A stretch of 64,000 nt of DNA from an uncultured Acidimicrobiaceae bacterium (GTDB lineage: Bacteria > Actinomycetota > Acidimicrobiia > Acidimicrobiales > RAAP-2), in NCBI GenBank assembly GCA_963805665.1, contig CAWDVF010000011.1:393966-457965 (forward strand), given 5' to 3'. This document shows, piece after piece, positions 2,904 to 34,895 of the stretch. The notes below the pieces were generated by a model. The model was not told where the DNA came from and ran no database searches. It saw only the letters and a list, made by a program, of their open reading frames with translations. Position numbers and translations under genes: made by a program. Within the stretch, counting starts at the first letter, position 1. Each line of letters begins with the position of its first letter.

Positions 2904-4307
2904 CTAGGCCGCGACGGCGGTCCGGGCGAGCTGGTTCGCCGGGTCGTCCGGCCGCAACAGCCCCGTCTCCTCGGGTTGCGGCGCCAGCAGGTAGGCCCAG
3001 ACGAAGAAGTTGATCGGATAGAGCAGGTAACCCAGCCGCGGGTCGGGCGCCAGCAGGATCAGCGCCGACATGACGACGCCCGAGATCATGCACACCTGCG
3101 CCACCGTGGTCGGCGTGTGCCGCCAGAGGTGGCGGGCCAGCAGCACGGCCAGCACCAGGCCCACCGAGACGGGGAGGACGCGGCTCAAGGAGGGGAACGC
3201 GTTGCACCAAGAGGTGCCCCGGCAGCGCACTGGCCGCCGTCGACGGGATCGCGCTCAACCCGAGCGGGAAGAGGACGACGTCGTCGATCAGCGCGAACGG
3301 CCCGCGCAGCGCGAACGGGAAGATCGCCGGCACCGCCACCACGAGCAGCCCGGCCAGCATGGTCAGCGGGCGCCGTTCCCCCTTGCGGCCGTAGGCGGCG
3401 AAGAGCGCCAGCACGGCCAGCGGCCAGGCGGTGAACTTCATGGCCGACACGATGCCCAGCACGACCCCGGATGCGAACGGGTGTCGCCGCTGGGCCAGGA
3501 CCATGGCGAGCAGGAGGAAGGCGACGACCGGGATGTCGTCGCCGCCCGTGGCCAGCGGGAGCGACGCGATGGGCAAGATCGATCAGCGCCTGGATGGCGC
3601 GGATCTTGCGACGTCCGTCCGCTCGACAGAGATACAGCGCGAGCGCGGCCACCATGATGGTCGTCAGGCAGAAGAAGATGCGCGCGTCGCTGAGCCCGTT
3701 GTTGCGCCAGATGTCGCTCGGGATGCCGAACACCGCCATGAGCGGCAGGTAGGGCAGGAAGCCGGCGTAGTTGGGCTGACCCGGCGCGTGGTACTTCACC
3801 TCGTGGGACGAGCGGTGGATCTTGAGGTAGGGGTCTTGCCCCTTGACCAAGTCCTGCCCGCCGACTTCGACCACGGTCACCTCGGGCTGTTGGTGCGAGC
3901 CGGCCACCCCGTCGAAGCGCCACACGATCTCGAGGCCCATGCGGGATGGCGAGGGCGCCGACGAACACGCAGACGGCCACGACGATGCGTGCCAGCCAGG
4001 CCCGGTGGTGCTGCACCTCGGTCAGCTGGCGCGACGGCCGGCGACGGCGGGCCCGGTGCACCCACCAGACGATGCCCGCCGACGCGAGAGCGCCGAACGC
4101 GAAGGGAGCCAGCGCCATCCGACCCCACACCTGGTACAGCGCGTTGGTCGACGTGTAGATCGTGCCGAGCGCGAAGAGCGCGCTGGCGAAGTACAAGAGC
4201 GCGTCGCCCGCCTCGGGCGAGATCCGGCACACGCGGTCCCACGCCAGCCGCGCCACGTCCCGGGTGCGCTTGCCCCAGTCCATGATGGTGAGTGAGGTCG
4301 TCGGCAT
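2904..4307 (-). CDS. Polytopic membrane glycosyltransferase-like protein (GT-C fold, DUF2029/GT87-like); at least 3 frame switches
   Basis: Four track ORFs in different frames join into one hydrophobic protein: 3438..4475 (from MPTTSLTIMDWGKRTRD, ATG at 4307), 3185..3940, 2842..3576 and 2904..3230. Multiple TM helices are present, e.g. IPVVAFLLLAMVLAQRRHPFASGVVLGIVSAMKFTAWPLAVLALFAAY. The family assignment is from memory of mannosyltransferase-like proteins, not from a search. Confidence 0.5.
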
Positions 4308-27271: not shown

Positions 27272-27390
27272 ATCCCGGCGGCGACCTACTCTCCCAGGGG
27301 GCCTCCCCCCAAGTACCATCGGCGCGGGCGGGCTTAACTGCCGTGTTCGGAATGGGAACGGGTGTTTCCCCGCCGCTATGGCCACCGGAA
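27272..27390 (-). rRNA. rrf: 5S ribosomal RNA
   Basis: The reverse complement reads TTCCGGTGGCCATAGCGGCGGGGAAACACCCGTTCCCATTCCGAACACGGCAGTTAAGCCCGCCCGCGCCGATGGTACTTGGGG...GGGAGAGTAGGTCGCCGCCGGGAT, the canonical 5S sequence. Confidence 0.95.
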
Positions 27391-27803
27391 ATCATGCGCT
27401 CGGCGGGCACTACTCCAGTCTTTTGACTGAATAGGCGCCGCCTGGCTACCTATAAGGCAGCCCCTGAGCGTTCCAAAGCGAGCACGAGCGATTATGTCCC
27501 CAAGCCCTCGGCCGATTAGTACCGGTCGGCTGAATGCATTGCTGCACTTACACCTCCGGCCTATCAACGTGGTCGTCTAGCCACGGGCCTTACCAGGTTA
27601 ACCCTGTGGGAGATTTCATCTCGAAACGGGCTTCGCACTTAGATGCTTTCAGCGCTTATCCCACCCGTAGGTCGCAAACCAGCCGTGCCCTTGGCAGGAC
27701 AACTGGCACACGAGAGCTACGTCCGTCCCGGTCCTCTCGTACTAGGGACAGCCTTTCTCAAATCTCCTACGGCTGCATCGGATAGGGACCGAACTGTCTC
27801 ACG

Positions 27804-28544
27804 CATGTTGATCCCGCATTACTGCGGGCACAGACTATACCTTCACCCTCTTTCGAGGGGCTGGCGTGTTATGGCTTCCACAGGGGTCTGCGGACCGAGG
27901 TTTCGGTCTAAAGAAGCCATCTCTTCGCTGTTGCTGGCGAAGAAGTCGTTACAGGGGCACAACACGCCCATGCTACGTAGATGTTGCTCGACATCTACGG
28001 CGGAAATCCGCTTCGTTTTTGAATAGTTTAGGGTTGCAAACGCATCTACTTGGCGTGCCAGTTGCAGGAACACTTCCGGATCTCTCACTCGTCCGAGGAG
28101 AGGGAGGATCGCAAGCGCTTCCCTGACGTGCTCTCGCTTGAAGATCACGTAGGGCTCGACTTCCTGAAGAAGGCAGACGACGAGTTCTCGGCTTGTGATC
28201 ACAAGATCACTCATGCCGGTTCCTCGATCTCGAAGGTAACCACCGCCGCCGATGAGGGACTGGATCTGCTCCAGGCCCGCTCGGGCAGAGGTGGACTGCG
28301 AGAACGAAACGCTGGCCCGGATGTAAAACCCGAACCGGTATTCCTTCTGCCTGACGAGTTGGAAGTGGATACTTCCGTCCCCGTCTAGGAATCCTGCAAC
28401 ATAGGACGCTGTAGATACATTCACTGTGTGTTGGCCTTCCCTCGGTATTGCCCTGAACATGAACGTTCGGTAGTTCGTTCAGGGTTTCACCGATATGAGC
28501 CAGTGAGCACCCAGAAATTACTTTCTGGGGACGCAGTGTTATCT
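27804..28544 (-). mobile_element. Group I intron (741 nt) in 23S rRNA after the U equivalent to E. coli U2593 (the I-CreI site), carrying a LAGLIDADG ORF
   Basis: The exon sequence GGGTTTAGAACGT|...|CGTGAGACAGTTCGG is continuous once 27804-28544 is removed. The 5' exon ends in U and the intron ends in G. GNRA-capped hairpins: CCCAGAAA-GUAA-UUUCUGGG (28510-28529), CCCUC-GAAA-GAGGG, CCCGCA-GUAA-UGCGGG (27813-27828). A J8/7-like AAGGUAUAGUC lies at 27833-27843. Nested long-range pairs: GGCGUGUU/AACACGCC and AUGGCUUC/GAAGCCAU. Confidence 0.85.
27843..28460 (-). CDS. LAGLIDADG homing endonuclease, single-motif I-CreI-like family
   Basis: Intact 205-aa ORF inside the intron: YVAGFLDGDGSIHFQL..., GYLRDRGTGMSDLVITS, LQEVEPYVIFKRE, TLNYSKTKRISAVDVEQHL. 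This parallels I-CreI (YLAGFVDGDGSI, GYVRDRGSVSDYILS, ALNDSKTRKTT) as I recall it. The last ~45 codons overlap the structured ribozyme 3' core and are probably not part of the enzyme fold. Confidence 0.85.
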   Translation of the reverse strand: MFRAIPREGQHTVNVSTASYVAGFLDGDGSIHFQLVRQKEYRFGFYIRASVSFSQSTSARAGLEQIQSLIGGGGYLRDRGTGMSDLVITSRELVVCLLQEVEPYVIFKREHVREALAILPLLGRVRDPEVFLQLARQVDAFATLNYSKTKRISAVDVEQHLRSMGVLCPCNDFFASNSEEMASLDRNLGPQTPVEAITRQPLERG

Positions 28545-28567
28545 ACGTTCTAAACCCAGCTCGCGTA

Positions 28568-28603
<36 letters not shown>

Positions 28604-28604
28604 G

Positions 28605-28650
<46 letters not shown>

Positions 28651-28875
28651 TCCCGTCGATATGGACTCTTGGGGAAGATGAGCCTGTTATCCCCGGGGTA
28701 CCTTTTATCCGTTGAGCAACGGCGCTTCCACAAGCAACCGCTGGATCACTATGCCCTGCTTTCGCACCTGCTCGACTTGTAGGTCTCGCAGTCAAGCTCC
28801 CTTTTGCCATTGCACTCGACAGCTGATTGCCAACCAGCCTGAGGGAACCTTTGGGCGCCTCCGTTACGTTTTAGG

Positions 28876-29796
28876 CAAACTGTTAGCCCGACAACTTGTA
28901 TCTCATGCTCGGCAGCACTTGCTCGTGTGATGAACGCAGTCAGAGTCGTCACGGAGGGCGCCGGAACGTAAATCTGCAAGCCATCACGCTGCTTTCGCAC
29001 TGTGGTCTCTACTCCGACATCGCGTCGCATCACCTCTTGCAGAAGTTAGACCTCTGCCTGGGTGAAGCTCTGCGTGTTGAGGTACAGCCCACGACACTGG
29101 CTCGATTTTCTCGAGCCATCATCCATGAACCACACAGCCATGCTCAAAGGTGTGAGTTCGAGGTCTTCCGGAATCACCTTTCGGCGATCTCGATAGAACA
29201 CCAACCGAAATCCTTCGAGCTCGACATGCGAGAGGGTTGAAAACCCAACGTTTGTCGACGAGGTTCCGAGTCGGTTACGCCGAACTCTGGCCTTTGGTGG
29301 TGTGCGGACCCAATCTCGCCACTCGAGGTATTTCCAGTCGACATATGCCGTCTGGGCAACTGAGTGTTCGATCTTGAGCCTGGCCGTCAATGCGCCTGCC
29401 TGTCGCTCTAGATGCGCATCGCCGAGAAGCATCCCCACAAGGATTTGCTTCTGACGATCCGTTATCGTCAACGACGCCTTCTGCCTGCGCAGTGCCAGCG
29501 TGTTCATGGACGGAGTTGTCGTCTCGAGGTCATTTCTGCCTCGATCTGCATGTCGCCATGCAGTTCAGACCATTCCATCACCCGTCTTGCGACGGGGCTC
29601 TCGTTGTGGTCGTTGAGGTAGGTGGCAGAGCCACCCAACCTGCTGATTGTCCGCACTGGTCAGATTGTCACTGCCCATGTCATGCACCCTAAAGATGCGA
29701 TGTGACATGGATGAGTACTGCCAGATACTCGGGTGTTCCAGCATACGCCGAGAGTTTTATTTCACATGGTTTCCCATGATTCGCCCCATTTTGTTA
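28876..29796 (-). mobile_element. Group I intron (921 nt) in 23S rRNA after the U equivalent to E. coli U2262, carrying a double-motif LAGLIDADG ORF
   Basis: The exon GACTGGGGCGGTCGCCT|...|CCTAAAACGTAACGGAGGCGCC is continuous once 28876-29796 is removed. The 5' exon ends in U and the intron ends in G (..AACAGTTTG). A core block at 29641-29750 is shared with the third intron. Confidence 0.8.
29046..29507 (-). pseudogene. LAGLIDADG homing endonuclease, two-motif type, interrupted by an in-frame TAA (29046-29048)
   Basis: ORF 29046..29507 has motif 1 ILVGMLLGDAHL and motif 2 LSMAVWFMDDGS, ending ...LNTQSFTQAEV-stop. The same frame continues LLQEVMRRDVGVETTVRKQRDGLQIYVPAPSVTTLTAFI (track ORF 28749..29033), which looks like the expected C-terminal part, and then reads through the intron/exon boundary without a stop. 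Confidence 0.65.
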
Positions 29797-30080
29797 AGGC
29801 GACCGCCCCAGTCAAACTACCCACCTGACGCTGTTCCTGATCCGGATTACGGACCGAGGTTAGAGCTCCGGCACTAAAAGGGTGGTATTTCAAGGTTGAC
29901 TCCACACTGGCTAGCGCCAATGCTTCAAAGTCTCCCACCTATCCTACACAAACAGTACCAAAACTCAACATCAAGCTGTAGTAAAGGTCCACGGGGTCTT
30001 TCCGTCCTGATGCAGCTAACGAGCATCTTTACTCGTACTTCAATTTCGCCGGGTCTGTGGTTGAGACAGTAGGAAAGTCG

Positions 30081-30544
<464 letters not shown>

Positions 30545-31386
30545 AGGTTCAGAGCTTCGCCCGAGGACTAACCCTTCCCCGTAACCTTCCGGCACCGGGC
30601 AGGCGTCAGAGCGTATACATCGTCTTACGACTTCGCACGCTCCTGTGTTTTTAGTAAACAGTCGCTTTCCCCAATTCTCTGCGGCCCCTTCGGGCATCCG
30701 GACGCGAAGTCCTTCACCCTATCGAGGCCCTCCTTCTCCCGAAGTTACGGAGGAATTTTGCCGAGTTCCTTAACCACAGTTCTCCCGATCGCCTTGGTAT
30801 TCTCTACCCGCCCACCTGTGTTGGTTTGGGGTACGGGTACCGTGTCAACTCGCTAGAAGCTTTTCTAGGCAGCATAGAATCAGTGACTTCGCCTGAAACG
30901 GCTCGGCATCGCGTCTCAGGATTAATGGGACCCGGATTTACCTAGATCCCTCCCTACACGCTTACCCCAGGACAACCAACGCCTGGGCTCACCTATCTTC
31001 CTGCGTCCCTCCTTTGCTGTCCGCCCCAGGGTTTGTCGGTTCGACCCGAAGGTCATCCCCTTAGTACCCCTGGCTTGGAATGGGCGTGGACACGGTAGTA
31101 CTGGAATATCAACCAGTTGTGCATCGACTACGCCTCTCGGCCTCGCCTTAGCTCCCGACTTACCCTGGGAGGATTAGCCTTCCCCAGGAACCCTTGGGCT
31201 TACGGCGGAGGAGTTTCTCACTCCTCTCTCGCTACTCATACCAGCATTCGCACTCGACCACGCTCCACGACGGTTCACACCGCCGCTTCGCTGCGAGATC
31301 GACGCTCCCCTACCACTCCCGTCTAATGACGGAAATCCGCGGCTTCGGCTCTTGACTTGAGCCCCGTTACATTGTCCGCGCAGGAC

Positions 31387-31417
<31 letters not shown>

Positions 31418-31418
31418 T

Positions 31419-31455
<37 letters not shown>

Positions 31456-31843
31456 TTGCGTTCCCACATCGTTTTCCACTTAGTCAAGAATTTGGGGCCT
31501 TAGCCGGCGGTCTGGGCTGTTTCCCTTTCGACCAACGAAGCTCATCCCTCGTGGTCTCACTGCCGGGTTCTTGAGCATCGGCATTCGGAGTTTAGTTGGG
31601 GTCAGTAAGCTTGTAGGCCCCCTAGCCCATCCAGTGCTCTACCTCCGATGCTGAACACCCGACGCTGCACCTAAATGCATTTCGGGGAGAACCAGCTATC
31701 ACCGAGTTTGATTGGCCTTTCACCCCTTGCCACAGGTCATCCCCCCAGTTTTCAACCTAGGTGGGTTCGGCCCTCCACGAAGTCTTACCTTCGCTTCAGC
31801 CTGCCCATGGCAAGCTCACTCGGCTTCGGGTCTACAGCATGCG

Positions 31844-31880
<37 letters not shown>

Positions 31881-32066
31881 ACCCATCACTGGTTAACCTC
31901 GCCACACACCGTAACTCGCTGGCTCATTCTTCAAAAGGCACGCCATCACGGCTGACACCCATCTGATGCCATCAATCTCACCCGAAGGGATCATGATGAC
32001 GATGGGGCAACGACGCTTTGACTGTTTGTAAGCCAACGGTTTCAGGTACTATTTCACTCCCCTCCC

Positions 32067-32113
<47 letters not shown>

Positions 32114-32947
32114 TCTAAGAGTACTTAGCCTTACGAGATGGTCCTCGCAGATTCACGCCGGCTTTCCCGGATCCGGCGCTACTCGGGAGTTCAAGCGGAG
32201 TTCAATGCTTTTCGTGTACGGGACCATTACCCTCTGCGGTTCAGCTTTCCTGACTGATTCCACTAAACATTGAATTTGTAACTCCGTGACGGGTCTGGTG
32301 CCCCATCTCTCAAATCCCACAACCCCATACCGGCAACGCCACCAGGCTCATACACCGGCACGGTTTAGGCTCTTCCCGTTTCGCTCGCCGCTACTCAGGG
32401 AGTCACTGTTGTTTTCCTTTCCTCGGGTTACTTAGATGTTTCAATTCACCCGGTTCCCTCGCCCCGCCCTATACATTCAGGCGGGTGTAACACCTCATGA
32501 CAGGTGCTGGGTTGCCCCATTCGGACATCCACGGATCGACGCTTGGTAGACAGCTCCCCGTGGCTTTTCGCAGTCGCCCACGTCCTTCTTCGGCCTTAGA
32601 CGCCAAGGCATCCACCGTTGGCTCTTTGTAGCTTGGAGAACAAAGATGCTCGTGCTCGCTTTGGAATTCTCAAGGGGCTGCGCAGCGCAATCCTGGGCCG
32701 GGACTCTCGAGCAGCGCACGCATCGCGCACATACAGGAGAGCAATTAACCCCCGACCGGGGTTTGCACGGGGTGAGCGGTCCTTGCCGGCGGGCTGAGTT
32801 GCAGCTCGATGCCGCAGCTGGCCACGAGGAGCACACAAAAGGGCTCGACTCGCACCGGCCGGCGGCGCCGCGCTGCGGCACACCGAAAGGGACGTCACCA
32901 GGGATTCGACGCGCCCGACCAACAGGCCGGGCGCAAGTCGCTCCCTC

Positions 32948-34895
<1,948 letters not shown>

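Follow-up and report, generated by a model that had tools for sequence, protein, structure and literature searches.

The stretch of DNA analysed here (64,000 nucleotides of contig CAWDVF010000011.1 from an uncultured Acidimicrobiaceae bacterium, hereafter the window) carries a ribosomal RNA (rRNA) operon whose 23S gene is broken, at the site called L2593 in Escherichia coli numbering, by an insertion of 741 nucleotides (nt). Our analysis points, with a probability of about 0.85, to a mobile group I intron of IA-like type (having both P7.1 and P7.2) that carries a homing endonuclease gene (HEG) of the I-CreI family in the loop of its paired element P6, and whose open reading frame (ORF) ends in an incidental tail read from the ribozyme core.

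The operon and all intron features described below lie on the minus strand of the window, with the 16S gene at 34693..33171, the 23S gene from ~32638 and the 5S gene at 27389..27273 (Rfam). BLASTN comparison with E. coli rrlH reveals three insertions in the 23S gene, after E. coli position ~1931, after position 2262 and between positions 2593 and 2594. The last of these occupies window positions 28544..27804, the break falling exactly between E. coli 2593 (28545) and 2594 (27803), as had been proposed in a preliminary description made from the sequence alone. The first base of the insertion (28544) follows U2593, the final base of a 5′ exon ending in ...GGGUUUAGAACGU; its 3′ end reads ...CAACAUG (...GGGAUCAACAUG) with the terminal, omega G at 27804, and the 3′ exon starts with CGUGAGACAGUUCGG. 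The same boundaries are common to 66 homologous introns, almost all from metagenome-assembled genomes (MAGs) of Acidimicrobiales, which provide the comparative counts given throughout; a U precedes and a G terminates all 66. The reconstructed exon junction, TTAGAACGT|CGTGAGACAGTTCGG, shares 21 of its 24 positions with the published natural target of I-CreI, TCAAAACGTCGTGAGACAGTTTGG (PMC1904291), bearing out the resemblance first noticed by eye. The Rfam match to the large subunit (LSU) rRNA (28506-32638) is called complete (model 1-2925), yet it ends inside the L2593 intron and leaves out the true 3′ exon of the 23S gene (27515-27803).

The fold of the insertion was derived from alignments of the homologous introns and tested on an alignment of the 66 introns, A2, that was not fitted to any structure. 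The resulting model comprises 86 pairs in 13 helices, with 98.6% of the alignment cells paired and changes on both sides in 50 pairs. None of 500 shuffles reaches the observed values, and slid controls give ~40% pairing with a covariation score of 0.05, versus 0.224 for the model. This covariation analysis shows that the L2593 insertion has the paired elements P1 to P9 of a group I ribozyme, together with P7.1 and P7.2. The short P2, the short P5 and the presence of P7.1/P7.2 agree with the IA-like architecture published for the L2593 introns of cyanobacteria.

In the 5′ half, P1 (28531..28548) pairs the exon ACGU plus the intron AG (28548..28543) with the guide CUGCGU (28536..28531); it is 100% paired, with a U.G wobble at the splice site in 66/66 introns and two pairs that change on both sides (AG/CU to CA/UG in five sequences). 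P2 is a hairpin, CCCAGAAA-GUAA-UUUCUGGG (28510..28529), with a GNRA-type loop, in which seven of eight pairs change on both sides. The two strands of P3, CUGGC (28499..28503) and GCCAG (27861..27865, preceded by the invariant junction AUAACAC), are 630 nt apart in the window; UA is replaced by CG in 28 sequences and one sequence has UUGGC/GCCAA. The comparative helix P4 (UCGGU/ACCGA; 28493..28489 with 28446..28442) encloses P5 (CCCUGAA/UUCAGGG; 28484..28478 with 28457..28451), whose loop, L5, contains both the heptamer ACCGAAC (28471..28465) and a lineage-specific AUG (28460..28458). The 5′ strand of P6/P6a, GG..GGCCAACAC (28426..28440), pairs with the 3′ strand GUGUUG(U)GCC..CC (27954..27965), and six of these 11 pairs change on both sides.

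In the 3′ half, the 5′ strand of P7, A[C]GACU (27944..27949), lies inside an invariant R-like element, GUAACGACU, and its 3′ strand AGUCU (27832..27836) inside an S-like element, GAAGGUAUAGUC, which is invariant in A2. Being nearly invariant, P7 is the weakest element of the model, with a single compensatory sequence (AU to UA in L051). Strong covariation is present in the 73 nt between the 5′ strand of P7 and the 3′ strand of P3, which form P7.1 (7 bp) and P7.2 (an 8-bp stem plus tip). P7.1 is the hairpin UCUUCGC-CAGCAACA-GCGAAGA (27922..27943; 7/7 pairs change on both sides), coding for ..FFASNSEE.. in the window frame. P7.2 (27871..27920) has the stem AUGGCUUC/GAAGCCAU, with changes on both sides in six of eight pairs, and a variable tip of two small hairpins that is missing in the alignments from L063 and L068. 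P8 is the hairpin CCCUC-GAAA-GAGGG (27846..27859), and P9 the hairpin CCCGCA-GUAA-UGCGGG (27813..27828; four of six pairs change on both sides). Two earlier assignments were rejected on the alignments: CGCAGAC/GUCUGUG, taken as P7 in a first hand model, since CCGCAG-ACCC-CUGUGG is a small variable hairpin in the tip of P7.2, and the first GCCAG (intron positions 609-613), taken as the 3′ strand of P3, which is the loop side of P7.1.

The longest ORF of the intron (27843..28460, 205 amino acids) contains the motifs GFLDGDGSI, GYLRDRG..SD and LNYSKTK, as first described. It has a single Pfam match, to LAGLIDADG_1 (E = 3e-7), and its best phmmer matches in the PDB are I-CvuI (4e-18; 3.7e-18 for residues 19-167), I-CreI (2e-17) and I-MsoI (8e-17 to ~9e-16 per domain), which together cover ORF residues ~11-167. 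No NCBIfam model fits the protein. In BLASTP, identity with I-CreI is 32% over 147 residues (E = 2e-23); the I-CreI sequence used is consistent with the PDB alignments. The homologous part (27966..28403) corresponds to residues 8-153 of the 193-residue form described below and to I-CreI residues 12-156, a single domain with a single LAGLIDADG motif, extending from GFLDGDGSI to the C-loop NYSKTKR. Reading this alignment by eye, we find that the catalytic residues of I-CreI, D20 (the Asp that ends the motif), Q47 and K98 (D16, Q43 and K96 in the 193-residue numbering) are kept, as are R68, R70, D75, Y33 and S138-K139-T140 (SKT within NYSKTKR), and that several DNA-contact positions, equivalent to K28, N30, S32, Q38, S40 and Q44, are altered. 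The entropy at the three codon positions of the ORF body (0.56/0.37/1.17 bits) indicates purifying selection on the enzyme part. Judged from its sequence, the ORF product is thus a single-motif LAGLIDADG enzyme of the I-CreI/I-MsoI/I-CvuI family, in agreement with the initial assignment, and the working enzyme would be its I-CreI-like domain of roughly 150 residues.

The start codon conserved in the family is located at intron position 121, where 60 of the 66 introns have ATG (45), GTG (9) or TTG (6). In the window it is the GUG at 28424, which opens an ORF of 193 residues (27843..28424) ending at the UGA 27845..27843. The AUG at 28460, in the P5 loop, provides an open, in-frame start in just 6/66 introns, because of a 2-nt insertion. 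The preliminary description had noted that 84 nt precede the ORF and 39 nt follow it within the intron. These figures hold for the longest ORF; from the conserved GUG, ~117 nt of 5′ core (P1 to the 5′ strand of P6) precede the gene, which is located in the P6 loop (L6). A purine-rich run, GAGGGAAGG, is present 11-19 nt upstream of the GUG, as part of the P4 3′ and P6 5′ strands, and could act as a Shine-Dalgarno sequence for this start.

We detected 823 homologues of the endonuclease in the protein collection, most of them full length; the best are 75-95% identical and are 171-173, 193 or 205-212 residues long. A scan of one genome per species retrieved 76 loci, nearly all from Acidimicrobiaceae/Acidimicrobiales MAGs, and in all of the 66 loci that could be delimited the gene lies inside an insertion of 695-744 nt at the same 23S site. 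Between the window (27515-28875; G+C content of the whole window, 69.6%) and the closest loci (L002-L066), the flanking exon (620 nt) is 99.7-100% identical and the introns are 85-89% identical, their differences (11-15%) being mostly at third codon positions and in the tip of P7.2. This places the window in the lineage of these loci.

In the 193-residue form, the I-CreI-like domain extends to about residue 153, and its end coincides exactly with the start of the 3′ strand of P6a. From there on the frame runs through the ribozyme core (P6 3′ strand, J6/7, P7 5′ strand, P7.1, P7.2, J7.2/3, P3 3′ strand and P8) until the UGA in J8/7, directly after P8. This overlap of 123 nt (41 codons) comes near the ~135 nt initially estimated to serve both as ribozyme and as translated sequence; the tail, however, is translated sequence in a formal sense only, its peptide not being under selection. 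The core does need the overlapped segment, as had been supposed: without the P6 3′ strand, the P7 5′ strand, P7.1, P7.2, the P3 3′ strand and P8, the core supported by covariation would be incomplete.

The relatives end their ORFs at different places over the same nucleotides. The stop lies in the tip of P7.2 (positions 634-640) in 16 loci, at the UGA of GGGUGAAGG (position 700) in 17 loci including the window, and at the UAG of UAUAGUC (position 708) in 12 loci; some others stop at the UAA of the invariant CCAUAAC (position 674) or in P9 (position 721). The invariant core motifs CAUAAC, GGGUGAAGG and UAUAGUC supply stops in all three frames. Lineages that lack the bulged U of P6a read P6′-P7-P7.1 as ..CAPVTTSS.. 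instead of ..LCPCNDFFASNSEE.. / ..LCPCNDFFASNSEEMAS. At intron positions 577-624 the entropy is 0.48/0.41/0.39 bits at the three codon positions, i.e., there is no codon periodicity. Finally, locus L077 (2409-2857) contains a 448-nt copy of the intron from which ~280 nt of the HEG have been deleted; its sequence from position ~474 onward is kept in full and both halves of the ribozyme are intact, a form expected at a late stage of the homing cycle. Because the stops and the frames differ, codon periodicity is absent and L077 retains the segment, the alignments show that conservation over the last ~41 codons is that of an RNA, not that of a protein. The enzyme presumably does not need its tail.

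Upstream of this point, RNA structure seems to extend into the part of the gene that encodes the conserved C-loop and C-helix (..TLNYSKTKRISAVDVEQHLRS). The entropy at third codon positions falls from ~1.3 to ~0.45 bits from intron position ~513, and the drop begins inside this part. Two covarying hairpins are present there, P6c (GCGGA-UUU-UCCGC; 28011..28007 with 28004..28000) and P6b (GUAGAUGU-CGAGCA-ACAUCUAC; 27998..27991 with 27984..27977), with three and four pairs, respectively, that change on both sides. A further helix, P6d (UUCG/CGAA; 28023..28020 with 28015..28012), is tentative, with two compensatory sequences only and an A.C mismatch in the window. In the P6b-P6d stretch, protein and RNA both appear to be constrained.

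The tail corresponds to what Edgell, Chalamcharla and Belfort (2011; PMC3073962) described as 'core creep', in which the coding sequence grows through P6/P7 and the elements beyond, up to the first stop codon that it meets in frame. The same paper documents it for T4 td/I-TevI, nrdF of Bacillus thuringiensis and the LSU intron of Synechococcus lividus, and predicts that the end points vary and that the extension is dispensable. The end points in the 66 introns are variable, as predicted, and the differing frames and the absence of codon periodicity in the extension were found as well. The overlap with the core is longer here (~123 nt) than in td (20 nt) or S. lividus (81 nt; PMC3073962). In contrast with these individual cases, the process can be traced here within one family, with invariant core motifs closing all three frames.

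By analogy with group I introns and I-CreI-type enzymes whose behaviour is established, the intron would behave as follows. It is predicted to splice itself from the pre-rRNA in a guanosine-initiated reaction, with the U.G splice site held out by P1 and the guanosine-binding site in P7. A homodimer of the endonuclease would cut intron-less 23S genes across the GAACGT|CGTGAGACAG junction, the predicted intron-less target site being TTTAGAACGTCGTGAGACAGTTCGG, and repair would then copy the intron into the cleaved allele. As the ORF has no stop of its own, its tail would be a by-product of a stop codon that was lost or never acquired. Translation and ribozyme folding probably exclude each other on one RNA molecule, because the purine-rich start region is in P4′/P6 and the end of the ORF is in the core.

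Several observations weigh against this interpretation. Rfam RF00028 matches neither the L2593 intron at E ≤ 1 nor the ORF-deleted copy in L077 (448 nt) at E ≤ 10, so that the group I membership of the insertion rests on the comparative model made here; RF00028 covers IA-type introns poorly. The AlphaFold2 model of the protein, computed from a 20-sequence alignment, has low confidence (mean predicted local distance difference test score, 48). The start used in the window could be either the GUG at 28424 or the AUG at 28460. Splicing, cleavage and expression in the host organism are all predictions from sequence. The two remaining points, the conservation of the tail peptide ..GVLCPCNDFFASNSEEMAS and the early interruption, by stops or frameshifts, of ~20 of the 66 related ORFs, have to be weighed together with the alternatives that they favour.

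One alternative is that the protein makes use of its C-terminal extension, for instance for RNA binding, as a maturase tail or for contact within the dimer, in which case ~125 nt would be truly dual-function. Most relatives indeed have an identical or nearly identical peptide ..GVLCPCNDFFASNSEEMAS, maturase activity is reported for some LAGLIDADG proteins from 23S introns of bacteria (e.g., in Thermotoga, according to work cited in PMC3984707), and a 'double role' was proposed for such regions by Haugen et al. (PMC1995217). The identity of the peptide is predicted by the constraint on the RNA; taken alone, it would also be compatible with a protein role in that clade. However, the ORFs of the relatives have four or five different end points and use different frames across the same conserved nucleotides; a one-base difference in the P6a bulge alters the whole peptide and the ORF is not lost, and the stretch has no codon periodicity. 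Moreover, the I-CreI chain stops at the equivalent position, and DNA binding by I-CreI does not require the C-helix (PMC1904291). We therefore consider a functional tail quite improbable. The overlap could also be a regulatory device, in which a translating ribosome unfolds the ribozyme and thereby makes splicing and endonuclease synthesis exclusive and timed, with ACCGAAC in L5 as a second possible element. This idea comes from the position of the start in P4′/P6, from the last ~65 nt of the conserved coding part, which form P6b-P6d, and from the end of the frame in the catalytic core; we regard it as unlikely. The heptamer ACCGAAC (28465-28471) is present in L5 of 56/66 introns. Its complement, GUUCGGU, lies in the 3′ exon (27788-27794), 10-16 nt past the splice site, and pairs within rRNA helix 93 with the GAAC of the 5′ exon, which the heptamer repeats. 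The heptamer might keep the 3′ exon in place or release the 5′ exon from helix 93 for P1; the 3′ exon segment is invariant, hence uninformative for covariation with L5.

The broken ORFs raise another alternative, that the HEG of the window is a decaying relic and that the intron persists as a vertically inherited ribozyme with no active enzyme. Besides the ~20 ORFs with early stops or frameshifts, the large internal deletion in L077, the frame-broken LAGLIDADG_2 gene of the neighbouring L2262 insertion and the GUG, not AUG, start codon in the window would fit this scenario. The early breaks could reflect widespread decay or assembly errors in long-read MAGs, in which indel errors are common and from which many of the broken copies come. 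Against a relic, the window ORF is intact across the I-CreI-like domain with its catalytic and DNA-contact residues kept, the coding signature at third codon positions is family-wide, and most of the 823 relatives are full length; we find decay in the window very improbable. Last, the preliminary description had folded the core into three nested helices, with GGCGUGUU/AACACGCC as an outer stem around AUGGCUUC/GAAGCCAU. Two of the three stand, AUGGCUUC/GAAGCCAU as P7.2 and CCCUC-GAAA-GAGGG as P8. In the window the 8-mers GGCGUGUU and AACACGCC match each other without a mispair, and 92% of the alignment cells pair, but they show no covariation beyond shuffles (289-337 of 500 do as well) and the pairing breaks in ~10 sequences in which the 5′ strand varies. 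Instead, GGCGUGUU covaries with the upstream GGCCAACAC in P6a, and the GCC of AACACGCC covaries within P3. The outer stem is not supported, and we regard it as extremely improbable. An intron with an I-CreI-type enzyme in L6 and an incidental tail thus remains our preferred reading of the locus.

Introns of this kind are already known in bacteria. Those of the cyanobacteria Synechococcus lividus C1, Synechococcus sp. C9 and Thermosynechococcus elongatus occupy the same site of the bacterial 23S gene (PMC1995217). They are 744-748 nt long, carry single-motif LAGLIDADG genes of 159-189 residues (Haugen et al., 2007; PMC1995217), and have a short P2, a short P5, P7.1/P7.2 elements of ~65 nt and ORFs that run from a peripheral loop into the core (PMC1995217). 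As in the window, the cyanobacterial hosts have several introns per 23S gene, including one at L1931; the third intron is at L2262 here and at L1917 there. The host is a member of the Actinomycetota (Acidimicrobiaceae) instead of a thermophilic cyanobacterium, the likeness between the introns being judged from the published descriptions. In bacteria of the Candidate Phyla Radiation (CPR; Patescibacteria), rRNA insertions with LAGLIDADG_1 genes were reported at 23S position 2593, and also at site 2604 (Tsurumaki et al., 2024; PMC11270868). These again share, by description, the site and the Pfam family in another phylum, and site 2604 is occupied in some of the relatives studied here as well.

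Outside bacteria, the closest parallel is Cr.LSU, the intron of the Chlamydomonas reinhardtii chloroplast 23S gene that encodes I-CreI, with the same insertion site, a homologous enzyme and a target identical at 21 of 24 positions. Its ORF is in the P6 loop, as in the window, and the intron measures 888 nt versus 741 nt. I-CreI ends at 163 residues, whereas the ORF studied here has an extension of 40 residues encoded by the core, in a bacterial host. The best structural relatives by sequence, I-MsoI and I-CvuI, come from green-algal chloroplasts; they were solved as homodimers, and no long core-encoded tail is reported for them.

We found no report of rRNA introns in Acidimicrobiia or other Actinomycetota in the literature searched. 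The locus is thus of a kind already known from cyanobacteria and CPR bacteria, in a host lineage for which we found no report, and it would not surprise a specialist. The suggestion that the ORF represents a new bacterial member of the I-CreI family is correct as to membership; the arrangement itself has been known since 2007 and 2011. The present data add the Actinomycetota (Acidimicrobiaceae and related soil MAG lineages) to the few bacterial groups with HEG-bearing group I introns in the 23S gene. They also provide several hundred natural I-CreI-type variants with an almost identical target, a resource for studies of drift at DNA contacts and for meganuclease scaffolds. The comparison of the 66 introns is a clean natural illustration of core creep, in which the frame and the length of the tail vary and the RNA is fixed. 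For annotation, such loci are mishandled by rRNA and gene finders, and the HEG is easily given a wrong start and a spurious tail of 40 residues.

The two other insertions of the 23S gene were also delimited. The one at L1931 (~30499..30128 on the minus strand; ~372 nt) is without an ORF of note and matches Rfam Intron_gpI (RF00028) with 57 bits (match 30193-30516), making it a second group I intron of this gene. The one at L2262 (29796..28876 on the minus strand; 921 nt) follows E. coli U2262; its 5′ exon ends in U and the insertion itself in G, and no Rfam group I match was found for it. It carries the LAGLIDADG_2 gene mentioned above (Pfam, 2e-33), which is apparently frame-broken, an ORF at 29046-29507 being followed by a 94-residue ORF in another frame (28749-29033).

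In four related genomes, L028 (~3140-3160), L043, L046 and L071, the 3′ exon of the L2593 intron reads CGUGAGACAGU and is then broken by a second insertion 11 nt downstream (site 2604). The 11-nt micro-exon between the two insertions falls, in these four genomes, inside the presumed target of the endonuclease.

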